The translations under genes and the position numbers were made by a program. Of a stretch of DNA of 64,000 nucleotides, positions 37,811 through 64,000 are shown piece by piece. How positions within the stretch are numbered: the first letter of the stretch is position 1; each line of letters starts with the position of its first letter. Source of the stretch: an uncultured candidate division Zixibacteria bacterium (GTDB taxonomy: Bacteria; Zixibacteria; MSB-5A5; UBA10806); the NCBI GenBank assembly GCA_963801605.1, contig CAWDFP010000006.1:800001-864000 (forward strand). Direction: 5' to 3'. Below the pieces are notes generated by a model. The model had not been told where the DNA came from. It made no database searches and saw nothing but the letters and a program-made list of their open reading frames with translations.

Positions 37811-38421
37811 TACGAGGATTAACTTTCCCCGAGTTGGGATCTGGTAAAATTAGATACGTGGCAAGGGGGCTGTGTCAAAATCGATTTCCTATTCTTACTT
37901 ATAATTGTTGATGGCGATTTCGGACTAATCCAAGATTTGTAAGTCCGGACAACCCTTTCCCGACTGATTCCACACTTCAAATTCGCCAAATACTATCCCA
38001 ATTCTTATTCGATAGCGGATGTCTTTGATTTAAAACACACGGTATCAAATATAATTCAATATAATTGAAAATCGTCTAAAATCAAAGCCTTTCCCTTCAA
38101 ATGAGAAAGTATAGCTGTCAATGCAGATATGACATTAAGCAAAAAAACCTGATTTTTCGCATAAAGCGAAACATATACATGTGTTACTGTGTTTATCAAT
38201 TTACATGATTATTGTATCGAATCATCCGATAATATAAAATAGGGCTTGTAGAATTCGTTCTAACCTTTTATATTAGGGCGAGTTTGTATTGGCCCGGGCG
38301 GCACGAGTCGAACCGGGTTTTCTTTTACATGATCCTCCCTTCAACTAATTGCAAGCGGACTATTATGTAGAGATTAATTTGGGCAGTGTTTAATCTGCCA
38401 TCGGAGAGGTTTATTAGTTTT

Positions 38422-40318
38422 ATGACAGCAGTTAAGCATATACGCAACGTCGCCATTATTGCGCATATCGATCACGGGAAAACGACCATGATTGATTCCA
38501 TCTTTCGGGCTACCCGGACATTCAGGGATAATCAGCAGATGGCCGAAAGACTGATGGATAATAATGATCTGGAACGGGAACGGGGAATTACAATCCGAGC
38601 TAAACATTGTACAGTCAGTTGGAAAAAATATCTCATAAATATTATCGATACGCCCGGCCATGCCGATTTCTCCGGAGAGGTGGAGCGAGTCCTTTCGATG
38701 GTTGATTCGGTTTTGCTGCTGGTAGACGCCAATGAAGGCCCCATGCCTCAAACTCGATATGTATTGATGCGGGCGCTGCGTTTGGGATTATGCCCTATCG
38801 TAATTATCAACAAAGTCGATCGTCCCCATGCCCGGCCTGATTATGCTCTAAATAAGACTTTCGATCTCTTTATCGATCTGGGGGCAAACGAAAAGCAAGC
38901 GCATTTCCCGGTCCTCTTTCGGTTCAGGGCTTGATGGCTGGTTTGTCAGAGATCTGGACAATGATCCGCATGAAGGGATGGATGCCCTGTTCGAAACATT
39001 AATCGAACATGTACCCCCTCCCAAAGTTGATCATGGCGGTCCGTTTCAGATGCAGGTAAGCACCCTGGCCTGGAGCGATTACATCGGCCAGATAGGCTGC
39101 GGGCGAGTACTGAGCGGTTCACTAAATATCGGTGAAGAATTTACCAGATTCGTAATGCGCTGGAAAGATCCGTCAAATCAGGAAGCCGGCTGGGAACTGG
39201 TTAAATCATCCAAAGAAAAAGGCGTTCATCTTTGGGTAACCCGCGGCTTAAAACGAACTGAAGTTGATCATATCAGCGCCGGCGATATTGTTTGGTTGGC
39301 TGGTCCCAGTGAAATCGGCATTGGTGATACTTTTTCGGCTAACGAAGATCCAGCATCGGCTCTTAAACCTTTAGAAATCGAGGAGCCGACTGTATCGATG
39401 TTTTTTCTCGTCAATACCGGACCATTTTCCGGATTCGATGGTACCGCTATTACGCTTCGCCAGTTAAAAGAGCGCCTGACTCGCGAACTACGCACCAATG
39501 TAGCCTTGCGTATGGAAGACCAGGGACAGGCCGATGGCGTTAAAGTGTCAGGACGGGGCGAGCTGCATCTCGCGATTTTGATCGAGGAAATGAGGCGCGA
39601 AGGGCTCGAATTCTGCGTTTCTCGACCGGAGGTTATTACTCATCTGGATAAAGATGGCAATACGCTGGAGCCTATCGAGCAGTTGATTATGGATGTCCCC
39701 GAGGAATATCAGGGAGTCATCATTGAAAAGTTGGCGAAGCGCAAAGGCGAACTAAAGACTATCGAAAATGCCGGCACCAATGTTATCCGTATTGAATTCG
39801 AGATACCTACCCGCGGATTGATTGGTTATCGCTCGGAATTCCTGACAGACACTCGCGGCCTGGGAATCATGTCGTCCCGCTTTATTGAATATAGTAATTG
39901 GCGGGGGGAGATCAATTTGCGCAACCGCGGATCAGTTATCAGCATGGATACAGGCCAGACAACTGCGTATGCAATCGAGGGACTTCAGGAACGTACGGTT
40001 ATATTTGTAGATCCGGGTGAAAAAGTATATGCCGGTCAGATTGTGGGCGAAAACTCAAGGACTCATGATTTTACTTGCAATCCCACCAAACGCAAGAATC
40101 TGACTAATCATCGATCGTCGACAAAAGATATAGCGGTTACATTGGATGTTCCGCGCAAAATGTCATTGGAACAGGCAATTGAGTGGATCGGACCGGATGA
40201 ATTGGTTGAAGTAACCCCGAAGGCGATTCGCATGCGTAAGGCAATATTAGATTCCGATGAGCGAAGACGCTCTCCTAAAAATCGAACCGGAGCTAAACAG
40301 GGAGTTGGCACGGTTTAG
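38422..40318 (+). CDS. typA: Translational GTPase TypA/BipA (split by one extra base near 38919)
   Basis: [41 protein letters not shown]; frames join as [12 protein letters not shown]. Confidence 0.92.
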
Positions 40319-41836: not shown

Positions 41837-43009
41837 CTATTTTGATGTCGCCAATCCTTCGTAGTAATTGAGTTGAATTGTATAGTCTTCGTTGTCGGGG
41901 TCCTCGGCCACCGCCTTTTTCGTATAATCGGCGGCAGACACATTATCGCCCTCTTCATGGCAAATATCAGCAAGGGTATCGTAGTAATTGGCTTTTTCTT
42001 TTCCGGAATGAGCCAGGGTTATCGCCTTTTCGGCTAACGTAGCCGCCTCACTTAAATTAACTTTTGCTCCCAGACACCACTGCGCGAATTCATTGAGTTG
42101 AATAGCCTGATCAGTCCAACCCTGAGGCATTGATGCTTTTCTATAAGATATGGCTTTTGTCGTATCACCATCGATAAATAGCAATTTAGTCGCGAGCAAC
42201 TGATCGTGAGCCTTGACCATGTCGGTATTAGTCGTATCTGACGTAGCGTCAAGTCCGCCCTTAATATATCCGGCGACTAATTCTTTCCGTTTGTTATCCA
42301 AAGACAATGTTACCATGCGCTGGCAAGCATCATATACCTGCCACTTTTGCTCGTTCTTAGACCTTACCACCTCGTCGGCAGCCTTTTTAACATCCTCAAA
42401 AGAAAATTCATTTTTTAGCGAACCGCAGGCCACACTGGTGAAAATTTCATAACTGTAATCATCAGTTGGATCGCTGTTGAGTTTTTGAGCTTCTTCGTAA
42501 TATTTGGCCGCTTTCTTACAATCGCCATAAGCCAGATGCCATCGTCCAAGTGCCGCCGCATCCTCGACAGTCGGCGTTTTATCCATTCTTTGCATCATTT
42601 CGGCAATTGTGCTCTTATCTTTTAAAGCGTCGTTAAGAGTGGGAATAAAATCGGTTTTATCGTAACCAAACCAACGATCTAACGGTTCGCCTTTGGCATT
42701 TACAATAATAAAGGATGGGAAAACCTTAACTTTGAATTCCTTTGCCAGGCTTTTGCCGTCGCCTTGTTCAGCGTCGGCTTGATAAAATACAACTGCCTCA
42801 AGCGCCTTTTGGGTGGCGTTGTCGGATTGGAGGGTTGATTCGAAATCTTTGCATGTAGGGGCCCACGTAGTGAAAAATTCAATTAATATCGGCTTATCCA
42901 ACTTGGCAGCTTGCGCTTTGATATCGGAATATTTAATATTGGTTTCTTGAGTATTACCCGGTAAAATAAACGCCAGCACCATCAAGCCAACTGCGCAAAT
43001 CGCTTTCAT
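41837..43009 (-). CDS. Exported thioredoxin-fold plus TPR-like protein
   Basis: Signal peptide; KPILIEFFTTWAPTC; cis-Pro VFPS; helical C-terminus with LNEFAQWC and YYDTLA. Confidence 0.8.
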   Translation of the reverse strand: MKAICAVGLMVLAFILPGNTQETNIKYSDIKAQAAKLDKPILIEFFTTWAPTCKDFESTLQSDNATQKALEAVVFYQADAEQGDGKSLAKEFKVKVFPSFIIVNAKGEPLDRWFGYDKTDFIPTLNDALKDKSTIAEMMQRMDKTPTVEDAAALGRWHLAYGDCKKAAKYYEEAQKLNSDPTDDYSYEIFTSVACGSLKNEFSFEDVKKAADEVVRSKNEQKWQVYDACQRMVTLSLDNKRKELVAGYIKGGLDATSDTTNTDMVKAHDQLLATKLLFIDGDTTKAISYRKASMPQGWTDQAIQLNEFAQWCLGAKVNLSEAATLAEKAITLAHSGKEKANYYDTLADICHEEGDNVSAADYTKKAVAEDPDNEDYTIQLNYYEGLATSK

Positions 43010-43454: not shown

Positions 43455-43637
43455 TTAACCTCACCTGAATCCGCTGTTGGATCGGCAGGATGAACCACTT
43501 GATGCAAAGCTCGATAATACTCGCTCTGTATTGCCTGAACCGCATTCTTCACATGAAATATTTGTATCTGCGTGAGTAAATACGAAAACCTCAAATTTTT
43601 CGCCGCATTCATTGCATTTATATTCGTAAATCGGCAT
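43455..43637 (-). CDS. FmdB-family zinc-ribbon protein, probable selenoprotein (58 aa if TGA at 43463-43461 is a stop; 60 aa ending U-G if recoded)
   Basis: Missing from the ORF track. GGAGG RBS, then MPIYEYKCNECGEKFEVFVFTHADTNISCEECGSGNTERVLSSFASSGSSCRSNSGFR-TGA-GGT-TAA. Confidence 0.9.
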
Positions 43638-43667
43638 TATGAAACCTCCAAGTTATTCTTTTAGCTT

Positions 43668-44309
43668 TTACGCTACTGCTTCTTTGATAGCATCCAGAAG
43701 TATATGTTCCGGTACGGCGCCTTCCACGTCAATTGTGTCATTAATAACGGTCCGTGGAACTCCCTGGACTCCATACTTCCTCGCCAATTCAGGAAATTCA
43801 GTGGCTTCAATAGCGTCGGCTGTAACCAGCGGCGACTCGTATGCCAACTTAAATGCTGCCAGTACCGCCCGCGGGCAATAGGGACAAGTCGGTGTAACGA
43901 ATACCTGTAGATGTACCGGTTTTTTCAAGTTTTGCAGGAATTCCTTAGTCTCTTGGGATAGCCCGGAATTGTCCTTTGAAATCATTTTTACAGTTTCCAA
44001 AACGGTGACGAACTCATAACCGGATGGTATCCCGTAAAATCTTAAGCCTCGATCTTCACCATTGACAAAGATTGTCGCCGGGACCTTGTCTACCTTATAT
44101 TTGGCTGCAGCTTCCTTATCCGTGGCAACATTATAAACCTCTGCTGAGAGTTTGTCTGATAAGCCGCTCAACTCTTTTACCAGAGATGAAGTATCGTTGC
44201 AATATCGGCATTCCAGTTCCCTCGTGAAATTGACCAGCGTAACCGGTCCCGATAGCGATGAGAATTCTTTCTCTATCGCTTTTTTCTCTTTATCTTGAAG
44301 TATTGGCAT
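43668..44309 (-). CDS. Protein-disulfide oxidoreductase (PDO / AhpF N-terminal-like, two thioredoxin folds)
   Basis: CRYC and CPYC motifs, GIPSGYEF, GVPRTVIN; AGGAG RBS before ATG 44309. Confidence 0.9.
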   Translation of the reverse strand: MPILQDKEKKAIEKEFSSLSGPVTLVNFTRELECRYCNDTSSLVKELSGLSDKLSAEVYNVATDKEAAAKYKVDKVPATIFVNGEDRGLRFYGIPSGYEFVTVLETVKMISKDNSGLSQETKEFLQNLKKPVHLQVFVTPTCPYCPRAVLAAFKLAYESPLVTADAIEATEFPELARKYGVQGVPRTVINDTIDVEGAVPEHILLDAIKEAVA

Positions 44310-44368
44310 TTTTAGCTCCTTAATACAATCCATCCGATTTTTTCATGAATTAATATTCATGGTTTAAG

Positions 44369-44581
44369 TTATTTGGCGGCCTTAACTACGCAAGTATCTC
44401 TGCCGCAAACCTGGTACATGGCGCAGAAACGAAACAACCCTGTTAAAAGCAGCACCGCACCCAAGGCAATCGATACCACCATCCAGCCTAATGATTTAAT
44501 CAAAAATAATCCTATTACTATTAATACTATCCCCGCGATTATGCGGAGCGTCCTATCGAGTCCGCCCACGTTTGGTTTCAT
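44369..44581 (-). CDS. DUF2892 (YgaP-like) small membrane protein
   Basis: NVGGLDRTLRIIAG...LLLTGLFRFC...TC signature. Confidence 0.9.
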   Translation of the reverse strand: MKPNVGGLDRTLRIIAGIVLIVIGLFLIKSLGWMVVSIALGAVLLLTGLFRFCAMYQVCGRDTCVVKAAK

Positions 44582-44601
44582 AATGCCTTCCTTTTATTGA
44601 T

Positions 44602-44853
44602 TTATTTTGCTTTGAAGTGTTCGTCCCAACGGGTTTTGAGCACGCCTTTGAGCTTGTTTTCCAGAGTGATAGGCAGCTTTTCCCTGATACCGTCACGGCA
44701 GAGAATCACTGTTTGTTTCATGGTGTCTATCATTATTCGGCAATTATTGCAGTGGCCGATATGCTCCTCAATTTCCCGGCACAAGCTGAGATTGAGACTA
44801 CCGTCCAGGTAATCGTTAAGATCTTTTACATAATCAGCGCACTTATTTGCCAT
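44602..44853 (-). CDS. Soluble zinc-binding anti-sigma factor (zf-HC2/ZAS)
   Basis: C...LNDYLDG...EEHIGHCNNC (HxxxCxxC); overlaps the ECF stop codon; no TM segment. Confidence 0.9.
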   Translation of the reverse strand: MANKCADYVKDLNDYLDGSLNLSLCREIEEHIGHCNNCRIMIDTMKQTVILCRDGIREKLPITLENKLKGVLKTRWDEHFKAK

Positions 44854-45427
44854 GGCGAGCCTCAAAATCCTTTGATAAATATTCGCGAAGCGCCAATCTG
44901 GCGCGCAGAATTCGAGATTTTGCCGACGCTTCAGATTGTCCGGTCAGTTCCGCTATTTCCTTAACAGAGAGTTCATTATGATAGCGCAGCAGAAAAGCTT
45001 CTCGATATTGATAAGGTAAATTATCGAGGGCCATATTAATCTTTTCCTGCAGCTCTTTGGTCTCCAGTACGCGATACGGGTCCTGCCATTCGAGAAGATT
45101 TGTATCATGACTATGAGACTCGCTGCCCTGTGGAAGGTAGTCCTCTATTGGACGAAGGTCGGCCTGCTTTTCTTTGGCAAAGTGAGCCCGGGAAAGGTTC
45201 AAAGCAATAGCATAAAGCCAGGTGCCAAACGATGACTCCCCTCGAAATTGGCCTATGTTATCTATCGCTTTCAAAAAGGTCTCCTGGATAATGTCTTCGG
45301 CGTTTTCCTTGTTTCCCACCAGTCGATGTACCAAGGCGTATATTTTGTCCTTGTGGGCGTCAACAAGCGCCGTGAACGCCTCAAAGTCGCCCGACTGCAT
45401 CCTGGCTATCAATTCTCTTTCGTCCAT
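44843..45427 (-). CDS. ECF-family RNA polymerase sigma-70 factor
   Basis: AEDIIQETFL, SFGTWLYAIA, region 4 LSVKEIAE...KSRILRAR; likely start MDERELIARM at 45427. Confidence 0.93.
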   Translation of the reverse strand: MDERELIARMQSGDFEAFTALVDAHKDKIYALVHRLVGNKENAEDIIQETFLKAIDNIGQFRGESSFGTWLYAIALNLSRAHFAKEKQADLRPIEDYLPQGSESHSHDTNLLEWQDPYRVLETKELQEKINMALDNLPYQYREAFLLRYHNELSVKEIAELTGQSEASAKSRILRARLALREYLSKDFEARHGK

Positions 45428-45521
45428 TAGATAAGAATATACCAGAAATGATTCAAAATTTCGATAAAAGTTAATTATTTCACAAATATTCTGAATCAAA
45501 TGCCTGACGCGTCTATCTAAT
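45426..45521. promoter_or_regulatory. Mirrored divergent motifs TGAATCA-N15-TATCTAAT (putative ECF promoters) flanking a Rex-like box
   Basis: Minus copy 45455-45426, plus copy 45492-45521; AAGTTAATTATTTCACAA at 45468-45485 lies between them. Confidence 0.65.
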
Positions 45522-45564
45522 TATCGGTGATGATTTGTCCTGGTCTTAAAAAGTGGAGAAACTT

Positions 45565-47451
45565 ATGAAAATGCGAATGTTCGGGATAATGGTCATTTTG
45601 TTAATTGCGGTGGTTTGGGCGGCTTACGGCTTTTGGCCCAGAATTATCAACTTGATGCTTCCCTCCGATAGCAGACCGGGCAAAGTTTCATTTCCTGTTG
45701 AGCGTATTAATCAGGAGGAGTTTTCGGTGATTGCAAATGAGCTTAACGACTCCCATAGCGGCCAATTCGATCATATCGATCATTTTCGTAAAGCCGGCAT
45801 ATTGGCTTACGAGGGCCCATCAACATGCTTGAAATGCCATGAGACGATTAAGATCAAAGATGCCGTAACCGGAGCCGAAAAAGAAGTGAATCTTCTGGCT
45901 AATGTCACGGGTTCAGTTCATTATAGATTCTTCAGCTCCAGGCATCCCAATGTTTATGGTTTCAACGGCAAATTGGCTGATTATTTTCCAATGGGAAAAA
46001 TCGACCGTCCCTGCCCTAAGCCCGGCTCGTTTGCGATGACCGCTTGGGCCGAATTAGTCGTGACTCAAAAGGGCGATACTCTTTCCGAAGGGTGTGGCCA
46101 ATGCCATATCGGAGGAGAGTACCAGGCGCCGTTAGGAGATATCATGCCCGGTTATCGCCCTATAAAGGAAGAAAAGGACGCTATTGATTGTTTAATCTGT
46201 CATTCAGCGGCCTATGATATGAATAAGAAACAGGTAATAAAGGATGCCAGCGGTCGTTTACACTGGGACCAGGATCGATCGATGAAAGCCGCTATGAGCG
46301 TTACCAATACCACATCCCAAACCTGCCTTCGTTGCCACCAACATAATTTTGGAGGCGATATCTATATCGATTCACTCGATACCTCATTCATGCAAAGCAT
46401 TCAAAACACCGGATACGAAAGGCCTCGGGTACTTCATCCGGGCTCAAAACGCGGGACGCCGTATTCACCTTCCTGGGATGTTCACGCTGCCGCCGGTGTA
46501 AACTGCACTGATTGCCACATCACCGAGGGACACTTGATCGCCAAGGGAACGCATACAACTACTATTATGGCGAACGATCTGCCCCAAACGGAGGTAGCGT
46601 GCGAAAACTGCCATACGTCATCTCCTCATAAAAGCAACGATAAATTGGCTGATTACTTAAACAGCCACACTGAAAAGATCGCCTGTCAAACCTGTCATAT
46701 TCCTTCTCTTCAGCCCGATAATGCAACCTATCGCGATTTTTCAAAGACCGTTTATGAAGAGCGTGCCGGTATCTATGTGTACAATGATACACTAAAAGAA
46801 ACTGCTCCCGATAAGGGAATTACTTACGTCTGGTGGAATGGCGATGCTACATTCCTTGGAAACCCGATAGGCGATAATCCCAACGGAAAAAATCTATATC
46901 GATTCTATAATCCAACTCACATTTGGCCCGAATATAAGGATTACGATTATGCCGGCTGGTATGAAAAAACTATGCGCCCGATTGCCAGCGCTGGCAGGCC
47001 GTCGAAACTATATGCTATAAAGCTCTTTAATGGTAAACAGCATATTGATCTTCAAAATATGGGACCGTTCGGCGGCATGTTTGTTCCTTACAATTTGCCA
47101 ACCTATTACCGGACCGGAAATCCCGATCAGGCCGCGCAAAAAGAGATGGGCAAGAGCATGATGGCTATGATGTATGGCTATATGTTTAAGTATTATCTTA
47201 TGGATAAATTCATGTCCTTTATGAATGTCGATAGGTGGAATACCGGGGCTTACAAAGATGTTCTAAATATCAAAAAAGTTGAGCCTCGTTGGCTTCCCCA
47301 GGATGCATCTCTTGAGATAAGCCACGCGATTCGGAAAAATGGAGCTTTAACCTGCGATAATTGCCATGGACCAAATGGCGTTCTTGATTGGAAAAAATTA
47401 GGTTATTCTGATGATGAGGCGCTTTCGTTGAGTGATCTGAGGATTCCATGA
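45565..47451 (+). CDS. Octaheme c-type cytochrome (octaheme tetrathionate/nitrite reductase-like)
   Basis: Eight CxxCH motifs (CLKCH, CGQCH, CLICH, CLRCH, CTDCH, CENCH, CQTCH, CDNCH), last one isolated at the C-terminus; N-terminal anchor; GGAG RBS. Confidence 0.85.
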   Translation: MKMRMFGIMVILLIAVVWAAYGFWPRIINLMLPSDSRPGKVSFPVERINQEEFSVIANELNDSHSGQFDHIDHFRKAGILAYEGPSTCLKCHETIKIKDAVTGAEKEVNLLANVTGSVHYRFFSSRHPNVYGFNGKLADYFPMGKIDRPCPKPGSFAMTAWAELVVTQKGDTLSEGCGQCHIGGEYQAPLGDIMPGYRPIKEEKDAIDCLICHSAAYDMNKKQVIKDASGRLHWDQDRSMKAAMSVTNTTSQTCLRCHQHNFGGDIYIDSLDTSFMQSIQNTGYERPRVLHPGSKRGTPYSPSWDVHAAAGVNCTDCHITEGHLIAKGTHTTTIMANDLPQTEVACENCHTSSPHKSNDKLADYLNSHTEKIACQTCHIPSLQPDNATYRDFSKTVYEERAGIYVYNDTLKETAPDKGITYVWWNGDATFLGNPIGDNPNGKNLYRFYNPTHIWPEYKDYDYAGWYEKTMRPIASAGRPSKLYAIKLFNGKQHIDLQNMGPFGGMFVPYNLPTYYRTGNPDQAAQKEMGKSMMAMMYGYMFKYYLMDKFMSFMNVDRWNTGAYKDVLNIKKVEPRWLPQDASLEISHAIRKNGALTCDNCHGPNGVLDWKKLGYSDDEALSLSDLRIP

Positions 47452-47678: not shown

Positions 47679-47755
<77 letters not shown>

Positions 47756-53066: not shown

Positions 53067-54648
53067 TTACCTTTCGCCAAAAATTTCAGCCTGAAAAACG
53101 TACAGTTCTGTTTGATCACTTCTCCAGCTTGAACTGGTAAGGCCTGCTTTAAGGCAGGCATGATCCAAATAGGTCGTTCGATCCCAACCCTGCTCGACAG
53201 GCACCTGAGGCAGGAGGACACCGGCATAGTTCCCCCGTTTTACATACAGGCCATCCCTGCCGACCATGACAGAATCGGAATTATATATTCTTTTCATCGG
53301 CGTTAAAACAGAAATCTCAATATCGATCGAATTTATTTCGCTTTCGGCCAGGGGTCGGAAACGGTAGTCCGAAAAGGCCGCTTGCCGGGCCATTTCAGCC
53401 ACAACTTGAAATAACGGGCCGCCGGGGTGAAAAGTCCCTATACAGCCGCGCAGTTCACCTTCCTCGTGAAGAGTCACAAATGCACCCAATGGCACTCTTT
53501 AGGGATGCTGGCATATCTTTGGGAAAGGTGATTTCTTTACCCTCCAAGCGCGTTTGGATTGATTTTCGTGCGATAGAGAGCAGCAAGTTTTTATCATCCG
53601 GTCCCAGCCCAAAATCTGCTCCACTTGTAGTCGCCGGGTTTGATACTGAATCCGATTTTTCCCCGGCTTTGGAGGAATTGCCTTCCTCCTCTAACTCAAT
53701 TTCAATAACTTTGTCGTCGCCGCTTTTATAAACCACTGCCGATAGATATCCAACTACGCTATCCTTATCTCCATTAGCGTCGCTGGAATCACCAAGGCCG
53801 GTAATTTTGGCGCTATCGGCGCCCATTCTCTGAGCCGCCATAAGAGCGGCGATGATGGGACCTCCTCCGCACGCCTCGGTTTTTTGTGTTTCGAGATCGT
53901 CAGTAAGCTTTTTGAAATTGTACTTTTCTATATCTTCGGCGATCACGGAGTCAAGCAAGGCGGCAGTAATCCGATCGTGAAAATGCGATAGGTCAGACGA
54001 TGCAACAATAAGTACATCATCACGGCCTCCTACCGCATTGGCTATGGCCTGAGCCAGAGCGTTACAGGTTGCCTGGTCCTGATCGCCCATGACAATCGCG
54101 ACCAGATTGAATTTACCAAGTGTCATTTGAAGGAACGGAAGTTGAACCTCAAGAGCATGCTCGGACCTGGCCCCGCTGTTAATATGTCCCTTATCCGACA
54201 ATGAAATCAGGCCACCAAAGGATGCGATCTTCTTCGCCAACTCCTGATCGATCGGAATTTCACCCAGCGGAGTGCTATAGGCCTTTCCCCCGAAAACTGA
54301 GACACCTTTAAAGTAGGTTGTGTGCGAGGGTGAAATAACAATGACGCTATTATATTCCTCACCCTCGAGCACCTTATAGGCCTTAGCCGCGATAGCGCCG
54401 GAGTAGATATAACCGGCGTGCGGCGCTATAATCGCAAATGGCTTACCGGCTAATTGCGGTTTGGGTGCAGCGTGAAAAAATTCCGCCAGCGTCTTGGCCA
54501 GCTCAGAAGGTGATCCGGGATAAAAACCTCCGGCAACGGCCGCCGGCCTGACATAATTTGTATCTATATTGCTCAAATCTACCTCGCCATAGGCGCTCGT
54601 ACTGATCGCCAGAGCCACTATATATATTATCGGCACACAAATTTTCAT
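53067..54648 (-). CDS. AmmeMemoRadiSam protein B (Memo-like) fused to protein A (AMMECR1); split by one extra base near 53497
   Basis: RPAAVAGGFYP, PHAGY, EHALEVQLPFL, SSDLSH, CGG; then GAFVTL, LRGCIG, LLPQV, KAG. Frames join as PASLK-VPLGAFVTL. Confidence 0.88.
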
Positions 54649-61468: not shown

Positions 61469-63413
61469 ATGAAAAAAAACGAAAATTCGATTAATTCTGT
61501 ATTCCTCCTGATTTTCATGACACTCCTGCTTTTATGGGCGGCTCCTGGTCAGGCAGGGGCTCAACAATGTCTCGAATGTCATGGCGATAAAACTATGACC
61601 ACCAAAGATTCGCTAGGGCATGAAATATCTCTATTTGTCAGCGATTCCACATACAAGGCGTCGGCCCATGGCAGCTATGGAATGCACCGATTGTCATAAG
61701 GGCATAAGCGAAATCCCCCATCAGGAGAATTTACCCCAAGTCAATTGCGGCGATTGCCATAGCTCTGAGGTTGAAATTTACAAACAGCATGGCAGGCTTA
61801 TGGTGGGATCGGCGGGAATGGGAAAAGATATTCCGGCTTGCGTGGATTGCCATGGCAAGCATAATATCCTGCCACCCGATGATAGAGAATCCAGTGTTAA
61901 TCCTCTCAATCTTCCCAGCACCTGCGGCCGTTGTCATGAAGACGTCGACCTTGTTAAAAAACATCAGATTCCAATGGAAAAGCCGGTAGAGGTTTTCGAA
62001 AGCAGCGTCCATGGTAAAGCCTCGCTTGGCGGAGTATACCTGGCTGCCACCTGCAACGACTGTCACTCCTCAAACGGTACAGCGCATATCATTTTACCGC
62101 CCGGCGATTCCCGATCATCAATAAATCATTTTAATATTCCCAAGACCTGCGGACGATGCCATAAGAGCATCGAGCACGATTACTGGGATGGTATTCATGG
62201 CAAGCTCACCGCCCAGGGGGAGACCGATTCTCCTGTTTGCACCGACTGCCACGGCGAGCACGGCATTCTGGCGCCTGATGATCCGCGGTCACCGGTTAGC
62301 CCCGCGCGAGTCGCGGAGGCCACCTGCGCCCCTTGCCACGAGTCCGCCAGACTTAACGAAAAATATGGCGTTCCTACCGGACGATTACAGTCATGGGTGG
62401 ACAGCTATCATGGCTTAAAAAGCCGTGCCGGCGATCTAACGGTCGCCAATTGCGCATCCTGCCATGGTGCGCATCGTATTCTTCCTCACACCGACCCATC
62501 ATCATCGATATATTCCGCCAATCTGCAGAAAACTTGCGGCAACTGCCATCCGGGAATTACGGCTGCAATCGCCAGCACCCCGATTCATGGTACTCCGGGA
62601 GTGACCCGAACCAACATCGCCCGGATATTCCAAAACATCTACATCATCCTGATCATCGGGATCATTGGAACCATGATAATTCATTGGCTGATCGATCTAC
62701 GTAAGCAGATTAAAAATATCGGCAAGAAAAAACAAATCCAGCGCATGACTCCCGGCGAAGTGTGGCAGCATACATTCCTGATGATTACTTTTATAACACT
62801 GGTTTTCTCCGGATTTGCGCTGCGTTTTTCAGAGGCTTGGTGGGTTAAGGTTATATTTGGTCACGAAGGCGGATTCCCATTGAGAGGAATCGTTCATAGG
62901 GTAGCGGCTGTCCTTTTTATCTGCACCGCTATCTGGCACGCTATTTATTTGACAACAGCACGAGGGCGCAAGTTCCTCGTAGATATGTTGCCGGGCAAAC
63001 ATGATTTCACGCAGTTCAGAGATATGATCTTCTACAACCTCGGTTTTAAAAAAGATTCGCCCGCATTTGGCCGCTTCAGTTATGTCGAAAAAGCTGAATA
63101 CTGGGCGCTTGTCTGGGGTACCGCAGTAATGATTTTAACCGGCTTTTTCTTATGGTTCGAAAATTTCGCGGTCAAATGGTTTCCCAAAGGGTTTCTCGAT
63201 GTCATGCTCATTGTCCACTACTATGAAGCCTGGCTGGCAGCATTGGCGGTTCTTATCTGGCATATGTATTCAACAATTTTCAGCCCCACCGTTTATCCCA
63301 TGAATCCGTCGTGGTATACCGGCAAGATGCCCGAGGATATGTATCGTCATGAGCATGCGGCCGATCCGATCCTGCTTCAAGCGAAACAAGAAGAAAAGCC
63401 TAACAACGATTAA
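61469..63413 (+). CDS. Multiheme c-type (11 CxxCH) plus cytochrome b membrane domain protein, CbcL-like (one extra base near 61673)
   Basis: CLECH before the shift, ten CxxCH after it, then TM helices with WQH, VHR, EKAEYWA and VHYYEA; frames join as SAHG-AMECTDCH. Confidence 0.88.
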
Positions 63414-63437
63414 CGAAAATTCGGACTAAGGAAATTT

Positions 63438-64000
63438 GTGAAAAAAGCCGTCCTAACGATTATCCTGGTTTTCGTTGCAACTTTGGTACGTGCTCAATCG
63501 GTGGATGATTGCCTGGCCTGCCATGAGGATAAATCGCTTTCCGCGGAACGCGCTGGTCATAAAGTATCCCTATATATCGAAAAAAAGGTTTTTTCCAAAT
63601 CAGTGCATGGCGAGCTCGACTGTATCGCCTGCCATGAGGATCTTGCAGGCTCCGAATTTCCGCATAAGGAAAATCTCGCTCCGGTTAAATGCGGAAACTG
63701 TCATGATGACGTAGCCAAACAATATGATGCCAGTCTGCATGGCAAAGCTGTGGCGCAGGGAGCCAAGCTTGCCCCGCGTTGTTGGGATTGCCATGGCGCC
63801 CACGATATCCTGCCGGTTAACGATCCCAATTCTAAAGTTACCAAATTCAATATTCCTTTTGTTTGCGGACGATGCCACAAAGAGGGAACCGAAGTTACCC
63901 GAACTTACGATATTCCTCAGGATAGCATTTTAAGCCATTACTCTTTCAGCGTTCATGGAGAGGGCCTTTTCCAGAAAGGCTTAACTGTAACGGCGGTATG
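63438..64000 (+). CDS. Second multiheme cytochrome c, paralog of the preceding gene; truncated by the window end
   Basis: Not in the ORF track; translated by hand. GTG start, signal peptide MKKAVLTIILVFVATLVRA, then CLACH, CIACH, CGNCH, CWDCH, CGRCH, open to the edge. Confidence 0.88.
   Translation, partial: MKKAVLTIILVFVATLVRAQSVDDCLACHEDKSLSAERAGHKVSLYIEKKVFSKSVHGELDCIACHEDLAGSEFPHKENLAPVKCGNCHDDVAKQYDASLHGKAVAQGAKLAPRCWDCHGAHDILPVNDPNSKVTKFNIPFVCGRCHKEGTEVTRTYDIPQDSILSHYSFSVHGEGLFQKGLTVTAV

Follow-up and report, generated by a model that had tools for sequence, protein, structure and literature searches.

Introduction

Extracytoplasmic function (ECF) sigma factors followed by a small soluble zinc-binding anti-sigma factor (ZAS) of the CHCC type are known from the pairs SigR-RsrA of Streptomyces coelicolor and SigH-RshA (ECF12), which serve thiol-redox targets. 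Redox determinants of RsrA are the residues E39, E40, L45 and E46 flanking the CxxC motif (PMC3177212), and SigH reads the bases G-11, T-10 and T-9 of its promoter (PMC6411747). In Corynebacterium glutamicum, sigH is read from housekeeping promoters, while a sigma-dependent promoter inside sigH drives the anti-sigma gene rshA and has been proposed to shut the response down (PMC3489674). Here we describe a Zixibacterial locus in which such a sigma/anti-sigma pair is joined by genes for a DUF2892 protein, a protein disulfide oxidoreductase (PDO) and a zinc ribbon, and faces the gene of a cytochrome related to octahaem tetrathionate reductase (OTR). OTR reduces nitrite and hydroxylamine in vitro, does not reduce tetrathionate in vivo and perhaps reduces sulfite (PMC12949373; for context see PMC9250108). 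The locus lies in a stretch of 64,000 nt (the window) of an uncultured Zixibacteria bacterium (GCA_963801605.1, contig CAWDFP010000006.1). Its genome, 87% complete, is referred to as G000, the window being G000:C6:800001-864000; all other coordinates are counted within the window unless given as G000:C6.

The initial annotation had described five co-oriented genes back to back with an eight-haem cytochrome gene, and this arrangement is confirmed: all six genes are real, the five on the minus strand are tightly packed, and the cytochrome gene diverges from them on the plus strand at a distance of 125–137 nt (Table 1). We read the locus as a compact copy of a Zixibacteria-wide ECF/ZAS regulon that would work as a self-limiting thiol-oxidation response, a reading to which we assign a probability of roughly 0.55.

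A common promoter motif and its targets

The evidence that carries this reading is a promoter motif, TGAATC-N17/18-RTC, that 61 of 65 loci carry at the ECF gene. As an independent check, a matrix trained on 57 ECF sites, with the window and the cytochrome-linked loci left out, finds sites before 38 of 41 MMPL genes outside the training set, at 35–50 nt from the R of RTC. The window holds two non-overlapping sites on opposite strands, one at the ECF gene with a score of 20.2 and one ahead of the cytochrome gene with 20.6 (maximum 21.1). They are the two best intergenic gene-proximal sites of G000; 19 sites score at least 20 in 6.1 million positions of this genome, most of them within open reading frames (ORFs). 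A match inside the zinc-ribbon gene (score 16.4) was treated as chance. In the most distant ECF orthologues (L176 and L177, family f15) the upstream element GCGACC ... GTCTA replaces the motif.

The motif also precedes the cytochrome gene in 7 of 30 other ECF-bearing genomes, 33–50 nt from the end of the scanned segment, four of these genes being unlinked to the ECF. The chance per scanned segment is 1.6% and the binomial probability 4e-7, for about five lineages, although the genomes are related and such p-values overstate the case. The zinc ribbon ending in selenocysteine (Sec) has the motif no further than 2 kb upstream in 22 of 29 ECF-bearing genomes, two of these being judged from coordinates alone. 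The share is 11 of 18 among the genomes of this set that had not been picked via the pattern search and one of nine in genomes without the ECF, against 6% by chance. One genome (G035) carries the motif before cytochrome, MMPL, rhodanese and PDO genes within 9 kb. Twenty distant pattern matches, picked by eye and examined, include three before MMPL operons, four directly before DUF302 genes and two before PDO genes, besides others before genes for a 1-Cys peroxiredoxin, OsmC, DUF2892, a zinc ribbon and a HesB-like protein (named from sequence only). All gene kinds of the window cluster are found under the motif elsewhere; therefore co-regulation is well supported, and on sequence grounds the genes very probably share regulation by this ECF sigma factor. 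The initial proposal of a single regulatory unit thus finds support both in the window, where the motif stands at the ECF and cytochrome genes, and before unlinked zinc-ribbon, cytochrome, PDO and DUF2892 genes elsewhere. The remaining targets are mostly thiol and sulfur redox proteins. DUF2892 and DUF302 are themselves associated with sulfur; no literature linking either of them to MMPL was found.

Several results sit less easily with a coherent redox regulon. The commonest target, an operon of MMPL, LolA-like, probable barrel and DUF2892 genes, has no known redox function. The motif precedes the PDO gene in only 3 of 10 ECF-bearing genomes examined, and for the cytochrome the comparison of 7 of 30 genes with 1 of 15 in ECF-less genomes is not significant (Fisher 0.24). 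Six of the 20 distant matches (L237, L238, L245, L246, L249 and L252) have no clear gene start right behind them, three of these having a zinc ribbon within 0.7 kb. G214, G028 and three Bacteroidota have the motif, yet a search for an orthologue of this ECF gave none in them. Simply counting matches to the strict pattern does not distinguish ECF-bearing from ECF-less genomes (at least 48 of 50 have a match), so that only position-aware tests were relied upon.

Two further observations concern single loci. In the Bacteroidota loci L016, L017 and L021, a strong motif lies about 90 nt before the cytochrome gene and the best ECF has 35% identity; a similar promoter may be recognized there by a different ECF. 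At L250 (G133:C2), the motif stands before a HesB-like gene apparently interrupted by a stop codon, with no Pfam match on the fragment scanned, which is possibly another selenoprotein target.

Gene order across the phylum

An orthologue of the ECF occurs in 122 of 285 Zixibacteria genomes (G000 counted), the cytochrome in 47 and the PDO in 48. The ZAS gene lies directly behind the ECF gene in all of 60 neighbourhoods chosen across families, where the usual genes that follow encode MMPL, a LolA-like protein, a probable barrel and another DUF2892 subtype. The order ECF-ZAS-DUF2892-PDO of the window recurs in the close metagenomic relatives L072 and L074, and the PDO-zinc ribbon pair in G001; a metagenome scan with the ECF had yielded 4 close loci among 56, all shorter than 2 kb, the rest being dropped as distant. 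The cytochrome gene is divergent from the ECF in 3 of 30 other genomes with both genes, namely G222 and G223 of one genus and G035, in which an N-terminal cytochrome fragment stands at a contig end with a TauE gene between it and the ECF gene; in many of the remaining genomes the two genes are on different contigs. Close relatives with the gene order of the window have NifB/NifX-like and CGGC genes upstream of the ECF where the cytochrome would be expected, and it was not found upstream of three ECFs of 81–85% identity (454–1107 nt of flank). Conversely, a tblastn search of 51 cytochrome loci, several on short contigs, gave no orthologous ECF, ZAS, PDO, DUF2892 or zinc ribbon, two of these loci holding unrelated ECFs of 27–34% identity. 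The adjacency of ECF and cytochrome is recurrent, being found in three families, but not typical.

The rare linkage of the cytochrome counts against the circuit as first proposed. The MMPL-LolA-like-barrel-DUF2892 operon was not found in G000 at its 87% completeness, and in family f9, the family richest in the ECF (66 of 108 genomes), this PDO occurs in none of the 108. Because it is missing where the ECF is commonest, the PDO is not an obligatory reset enzyme, and the idea that it generally re-reduces the anti-sigma factor had to be given up. The PDO itself is over the TIGR02187 cut-off with its two CxxC motifs and shows no sequence difference from that family. Most Zixibacterial PDO homologues (L257-L282) have an in-frame TGA, apparently in the second CxxC (a Sec form), where the PDO of the window has Cys.

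An alternative would be that the six genes came together by chance on a mobile island and are not regulated in common. In its favour, the ECF was not found in any of 23 other genomes of the same family and order, a tRNA-Met follows the cytochrome gene, and NifB/NifX-like and CGGC genes take the place of the cytochrome gene upstream of the closest ECF relatives. The two near-maximal motif sites back to back in a gap of 125 nt speak against such a mosaic, as do the motif before unlinked gene copies, the gene orders kept in L072, L074 and G001 and the GC content of the six-gene cluster, which is like that of the neighbouring DNA. The motif counts largely refute a chance mosaic, and we consider it very improbable. 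The tRNA-Met (47679-47755, minus strand) converges on the cytochrome gene; together with the absence of the ECF from its own family and order it may mark an insertion site.

The promoter at the sigma factor gene

The position of the motif at the ECF gene differs from that at the other targets. The ATG begins 5–7 nt after the R of RTC at 55 of 61 sites; at the other 6 it precedes the -10 element. Since the geometry of SigH, applied to the motif, places the transcription start inside codon 3 of the ECF gene, the resulting message would not encode the full sigma factor. A sigma70-like -10 element lies within the spacer, 7–10 nt before the ATG, at 41 of 61 ECF sites as opposed to 0 of 38 MMPL sites, and a trimer resembling a Shine-Dalgarno (SD) sequence precedes 3 of 57 ECF starts compared with 38 of 38 MMPL starts. 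In the window, SD-like sequences precede all four genes downstream of the ECF, including the ZAS gene, whose start overlaps the ECF stop and which has its own SD-like GAGG. From this we infer a leaderless housekeeping message for the sigma factor and an ECF-driven message for the anti-sigma factor and the effectors, which would amount to negative feedback. Judged by this analysis, it is likely that ECF-driven transcription skips the start codon of the sigma factor. A caveat is the stretch of about 570 untranslated nt that the predicted ECF-driven message would carry before the ZAS gene.

The logic of negative feedback would be the same as at sigH-rshA of C. glutamicum. There the internal promoter lies 62–66 nt before rshA, whereas the Zixibacterial one overlaps the start codon of the sigma factor gene together with a sigma70-like -10 element and, unlike its counterpart, would drive effectors too.

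Positive autoregulation is the rule for most ECF sigma factors, and the site could accordingly be an ordinary positive-feedback promoter whose sigma message is leaderless or a little shortened. The ECF of the window and its closest relatives have an in-frame ATG at codon 10, which would fit such an arrangement, and the ECF-driven start is itself taken over from SigH. However, by the SigH geometry the ATG would sit at -6 to -2, the start codon wholly precedes the -10 element in 6 loci, and downstream in-frame starts are not conserved in position, many loci having none in the first 30 codons. We therefore regard positive feedback as unlikely and retain start-codon skipping.

The anti-sigma factor and its signal

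The anti-sigma factor was rightly described as soluble and zinc-binding by motif: PF13490 is over cut-off and no hydrophobic segment is present. In the window its relevant residues are Cys5, Cys25, His31, Cys35, Cys38 and Cys52, and it has no second domain. Among 64 loci, 61 fit a ZAS pattern that requires the Cys spacing, with the His kept in 59 of these 61; two further Cys are conserved beyond CHCC, the fifth in 59 of 61. The extra Cys25 has the spacing of Cys31 in RsrA. A thiol-oxidation signal is suggested by this soluble one-domain CHCC build with its extra Cys, the SigR/SigH-like shape of the promoter and the thiol and sulfur redox targets, and a thiol oxidant is, on these sequence features, the somewhat favoured signal. 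No literature on RsrA/SigR with sulfane sulfur was found. A predicted structural model of the anti-sigma factor was not used (pTM, the predicted template-modelling score, 0.54; strands where ZAS proteins have a helix; no fold match).

The details of the zinc site argue in the other direction. The determinants of RsrA are not kept, since the window has G-H-C-x-x-C-R-I and an Arg follows the CxxC in 57 of 61 loci, and Cys31 of RsrA is non-essential (PMC4960319). In profile comparison RsiW (E 7e-7) is a better match than RsrA (E 0.28), and RsiW of Bacillus subtilis is CHCC-type yet redox-insensitive (PMC5358783). The SigW-RsiW pair resembles the Zixibacterial one in its CHCC motif and in similar residues round the CxxC, and SigW is among the top matches to the ECF of solved structure. 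In contrast to RsiW, which is membrane-bound and proteolytically controlled (PMC5358783), the Zixibacterial ZAS is soluble and has two more conserved Cys.

On these grounds the regulon could be real while its anti-sigma factor senses zinc or heavy-metal status or responds to regulated proteolysis, with the MMPL-LolA-like-barrel transporter as core output and the redox genes as secondary members. In line with this, the most constant target is the MMPL operon (site in 38 of 41), and a truncated second cytochrome copy in G000 faces an ArsR-permease-thioredoxin cluster, names read from the sequences. Such a signal is nevertheless improbable in our view: the anti-sigma factor is without a transmembrane or sensor domain for proteolysis, five of its Cys are conserved, the unlinked targets include a peroxiredoxin, OsmC, PDO, a rhodanese and a selenoprotein, and G000 keeps the ECF and the redox genes where the MMPL operon was not found.

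The cytochrome and its possible control by Rex

By sequence and by model alike, the only clear relative of known structure of the cytochrome is the OTR of Shewanella oneidensis. The model matches PDB 1SP3 with a Foldseek E of 2.5e-15 (VIA Z 18.5, rmsd 3.5 over 380 residues, 26% identity), and the profile-profile probability is 100 against three canonical OTRs taken from plasmid records; the TIGR04315 score of 99.6 bits falls short of the OTR family cut-off of 375. A search of 121 genomes with TIGR04315 gave no match, and because the controls were silent as well it is uninformative. The frame has exactly eight CxxCH motifs and one extra Cys, and shares with OTR the order of the eight motifs and the conserved Cys before haem 2. 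It differs in its length of about 630 residues with inserts and a Met-rich helix, in the lack of a cytochrome b partner gene in the close clade and in an invariant Lys five residues before the Cys, eight residues in the three canonical OTRs. This close clade is tight, all of the 120 best of 807 matches having at least 65% identity, and it extends over several phyla. Lys149 and Cys154 are invariant in 38 sequences. A Lys ligand at catalytic haem 2 has been described for OTR (PMC11024163), and Lys149 lies in the right segment; its spacing differs, it is not aligned by hhalign, the model is weak at 153–164, and a single-sequence search with the haem-2 region gave no alignment to 1SP3.

The Met-rich helix (47140-47232, residues 530–560) has 7–10 Met in 31 residues in the close clade and 4–5 in a distant clade; membrane contact, metal binding and a role as oxidant sink are candidate functions. 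Members of the distant clade (L050-L065; about 40% identity, 730–860 residues) usually stand behind genes for a multihaem cytochrome and a cytochrome b-like protein, which are the likely electron donors there and have no counterpart in the close clade. The truncated second copy in G000 (G000:C6:46937-49489; N-terminal 158 residues, 56% identical) heads a minus-strand run of DUF134, NifB/NifX-like, DsrE-like and CGGC genes. The CGGC gene of this run shares 90% identity with the CGGC gene immediately upstream of the ECF in L075, which may point to a rearrangement. Behind the C-terminal part of the cytochrome at L049 (G035:C104) lie convergent genes for cysteine-synthase/CBS-like, methionine-gamma-lyase-like, NifB/NifX-like and DUF134 proteins.

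A different control is suggested for 15 of 46 Zixibacterial cytochrome genes, which are preceded by boxes with no more than two mismatches to the Rex operator consensus TTGTGAA-N4-TTCACAA (PMC2883068), as against 2 in 1860 shuffles. The genes with a Rex box are mostly those without the ECF motif, while G094, G070-G072 and, weakly, the window have both. The Rex-like box of the window lies at the same distance from the cytochrome gene as the two-mismatch box in G094, but is weak on its own because G000 holds 145 sites with three mismatches. A rex gene is present in G000.

These boxes weigh against the cytochrome as a dedicated part of the stress circuit. The initial annotation had given it this function, as the reductase of the external oxidant, and as first stated this is not supported, the strong Rex box in 15 of 46 genes pointing to a respiratory role. 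Carried further, the argument would make the cytochrome an anaerobic respiratory reductase controlled by Rex (NADH), whose site and position in the window are a lineage-specific capture. Its solitary occurrence in varied contexts in other phyla, the absence of the ECF motif before it in 23 of 30 ECF-bearing genomes and the activities of OTRs on nitrite and hydroxylamine in vitro, and perhaps on sulfite in vivo (PMC12949373), would agree with this. Against a mere capture, ECF sites of near-maximal score recur at a fixed position in three clades that stand apart in the cytochrome tree, ECF adjacency is found in three families and the Rex box in the window is degenerate; moreover, in the cytochrome clade of the window the motif is present in the ECF-bearing G000, G094 and G179 and not in G098 or G280. 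We hold the purely respiratory explanation to be quite unlikely. From its upstream sites, the cytochrome looks like an electron sink that lineages have placed under Rex, under this ECF or under both.

The zinc ribbon as a probable selenoprotein

The zinc-ribbon frame runs through an in-frame TGA and one Gly codon to TAA, with both CxxC motifs intact and the putative Sec in its tail. Of 76 zinc ribbons parsed from all loci, the 37 short-tail relatives all end at TGA, as compared with 1 of the 5 whose tail has Cys and 18 of the remaining 34; TGA ends 30% of the long ORFs in G000. In 35 of the 37 a hairpin follows 16–24 nt downstream; 24 of these hairpins carry a GGTC loop, their stems being varied. 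Minimum-energy folding of the 59 nt from the window locus (z -1.1) did not give the predicted hairpin of the selenocysteine insertion sequence (SECIS). Of the Sec machinery, selA, selD (with its own TGA) and tRNA-Sec are present in G000, and selB is present but split into two frames near G000:C6:1298435. Sec readthrough of the zinc ribbon is well supported by these sequence features. The split of selB (G000:C6:1297842-1299696) is probably an assembly error, since other genes are split in two frames as well, namely typA/bipA (38386-40318), an AmmeMemoRadiSam-type gene (53067-54648) and a thioredoxin-TPR paralogue (G000:C6:879482-880634).

Published FmdB selenoproteins belong to the same zinc-ribbon family and likewise combine UGA with a bacterial SECIS. 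They differ in that their Sec is part of CxxU or UxxU (PMC2398784, PMC13188914), whereas that of the window zinc ribbon would lie in the C-terminal tail. FmdB was not found in the main text of PMC13326102 and PMC12013277, and the "FmdB" of PMC11227280 is another protein. The top 30 TIGR02605 loci are mostly a long paralogue without Sec.

Relation to described systems

The sigma/anti-sigma pair resembles SigR-RsrA and SigH-RshA in its gene order, in the soluble CHCC-type ZAS with a Cys at the spacing of RsrA Cys31, in its thiol-redox targets and in the geometry of its promoter, GAAT-N18-RTC as compared with GGAAT-N17/18-GTT, the bases of the -35 and -10 elements being different. It belongs to a different phylum, scores 31 bits against TIGR03988 (cut-off 62.5) and includes among its targets an MMPL operon, a Sec zinc ribbon and a periplasmic octahaem cytochrome. 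It is a system that works like SigR-RsrA and SigH-RshA but departs from them in two features of membership, the redox-determinant residues and the GGAAT-N17/18-GTT promoter. Term searches of part of the supplement of Casas-Pastor 2021 (PMC7826278) gave no group with this promoter or with Zixibacteria, no NCBIfam equivalog is over cut-off for the ECF among the matches listed, and no publication on this ECF, promoter or regulon was found in a literature in which few subscription journals were covered. This agrees with the earlier impression that the combination is not a described system: its parts are of known kinds, while the promoter, the make-up of the regulon and the overlapping-promoter wiring appear to be undescribed.

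Features of the locus

The features of the locus are collected in Table 1. The frame of 218 residues from TTG is an over-call for the ECF because close homologues have 194, and the terminator-like hairpin is weak alone, eight such sites having been found with 5.4 expected. Beyond the terminator, a gene on the minus strand (41837-43009) encodes a secreted thioredoxin-fold/tetratricopeptide repeat (TPR) protein without CxxC, which has several paralogues in G000 and by the evidence at hand is outside the operon. A thioredoxin reductase gene is present in G000. Frames of 10- and 19-haem cytochromes lie at the end of the window (61617-64000), and the genome has 23 frames with at least three CxxCH motifs, among them 58- and 42-haem ones.

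Table 1. Genes and predicted regulatory elements of the ECF/ZAS locus, in window coordinates.
Feature	Position	Strand	Remarks
ECF sigma factor, 194 aa from ATG	45427-44843	minus	218-aa TTG frame is an over-call
Soluble CHCC-type ZAS anti-sigma factor, 83 aa	44853-44602	minus	PF13490 over cut-off, no hydrophobic segment
DUF2892/YgaP-like two-helix membrane protein, 70 aa	44581-44369	minus	PF11127; 3 Cys
PDO, two thioredoxin folds	44309-43668	minus	TIGR02187 280 bits, cut-off 185; CRYC and CPYC
FmdB-type zinc ribbon, predicted 60 aa ending Sec-Gly	43637-43455	minus	TIGR02605, PF09723; TGA 43463-43461
Predicted SECIS hairpin, GGTC loop	43429-43444	minus	22 nt after UGA
Intrinsic-terminator-like hairpin closing the operon	43410-43385	minus	
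Octahaem c-type cytochrome, 632-aa frame, OTR fold	45553-47451	plus	N-terminal hydrophobic segment; likely start ATG 45565
ECF-type promoter TGAATC-N17-ATCTA at the ECF gene	45428..45455	minus	ends directly before ECF ATG
Predicted ECF-driven transcription start, inside ECF codon 3	45421-45420	minus	inferred from SigH geometry
Sigma70-like -10 hexamer TATATT, TG upstream, in ECF-promoter spacer	45436..45441	minus	8 nt before ATG
Degenerate Rex-like box between the two promoters	45468..45485		3 mismatches
ECF-type promoter TGAATC-N17-ATCTA before the cytochrome gene	45492..45519	plus	predicted start ~45526

Proposed response and its significance

In the response that we propose, housekeeping polymerase would make a leaderless ECF-ZAS-DUF2892-PDO-zinc ribbon message, and the ZAS would hold the sigma factor until its own zinc site is oxidized and the sigma factor set free. 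The oxidant would be thiol-reactive, most probably a stress of the disulfide or sulfane-sulfur type and possibly peroxide. The freed sigma factor would then fire both back-to-back promoters, of which one serves the periplasmic OTR-fold reductase and the other starts 6–7 nt inside the ECF gene, so that anti-sigma factor, DUF2892 protein, PDO and selenoprotein rise and the sigma factor does not. Cytoplasmic thiols would be repaired by the PDO with thioredoxin reductase and by the Sec zinc ribbon, the cytochrome would reduce a sulfur or nitrogen oxyanion outside, and fresh anti-sigma factor would end the response. The cytochrome would be an optional member of the regulon, controlled by Rex in many relatives.

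A bolder version, which is rather doubtful, would have an undescribed ECF group sense sulfane sulfur or polysulfide via the five-Cys anti-sigma factor. Its 28-bp element would be a two-way switch, from which sigma70 makes the leaderless sigma message and the freed sigma factor starts inside its own gene and cancels its own synthesis, inducing the anti-sigma factor, a zinc ribbon with C-terminal Sec and a new OTR-fold clade gated by sigma factor and Rex, that is, by the presence of oxidant and a surplus of electrons.

Taken together, the analysis predicts the promoter, the regulon and the wiring of a stress sigma factor that occurs in 122 of 285 genomes of Zixibacteria, a phylum known mostly from metagenomes. 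A small number of short constructs would suffice to test the predicted start-codon-skipping promoter, either in vitro or in E. coli. A clade under predicted ECF and Rex control offers a handle on the question of which substrate OTR-type enzymes use physiologically (PMC12949373). One testable signal would connect three orphan protein types, namely the zinc ribbon with C-terminal Sec, the MMPL-LolA-like-barrel-DUF2892 operon and a widespread clade of OTR-fold cytochromes.

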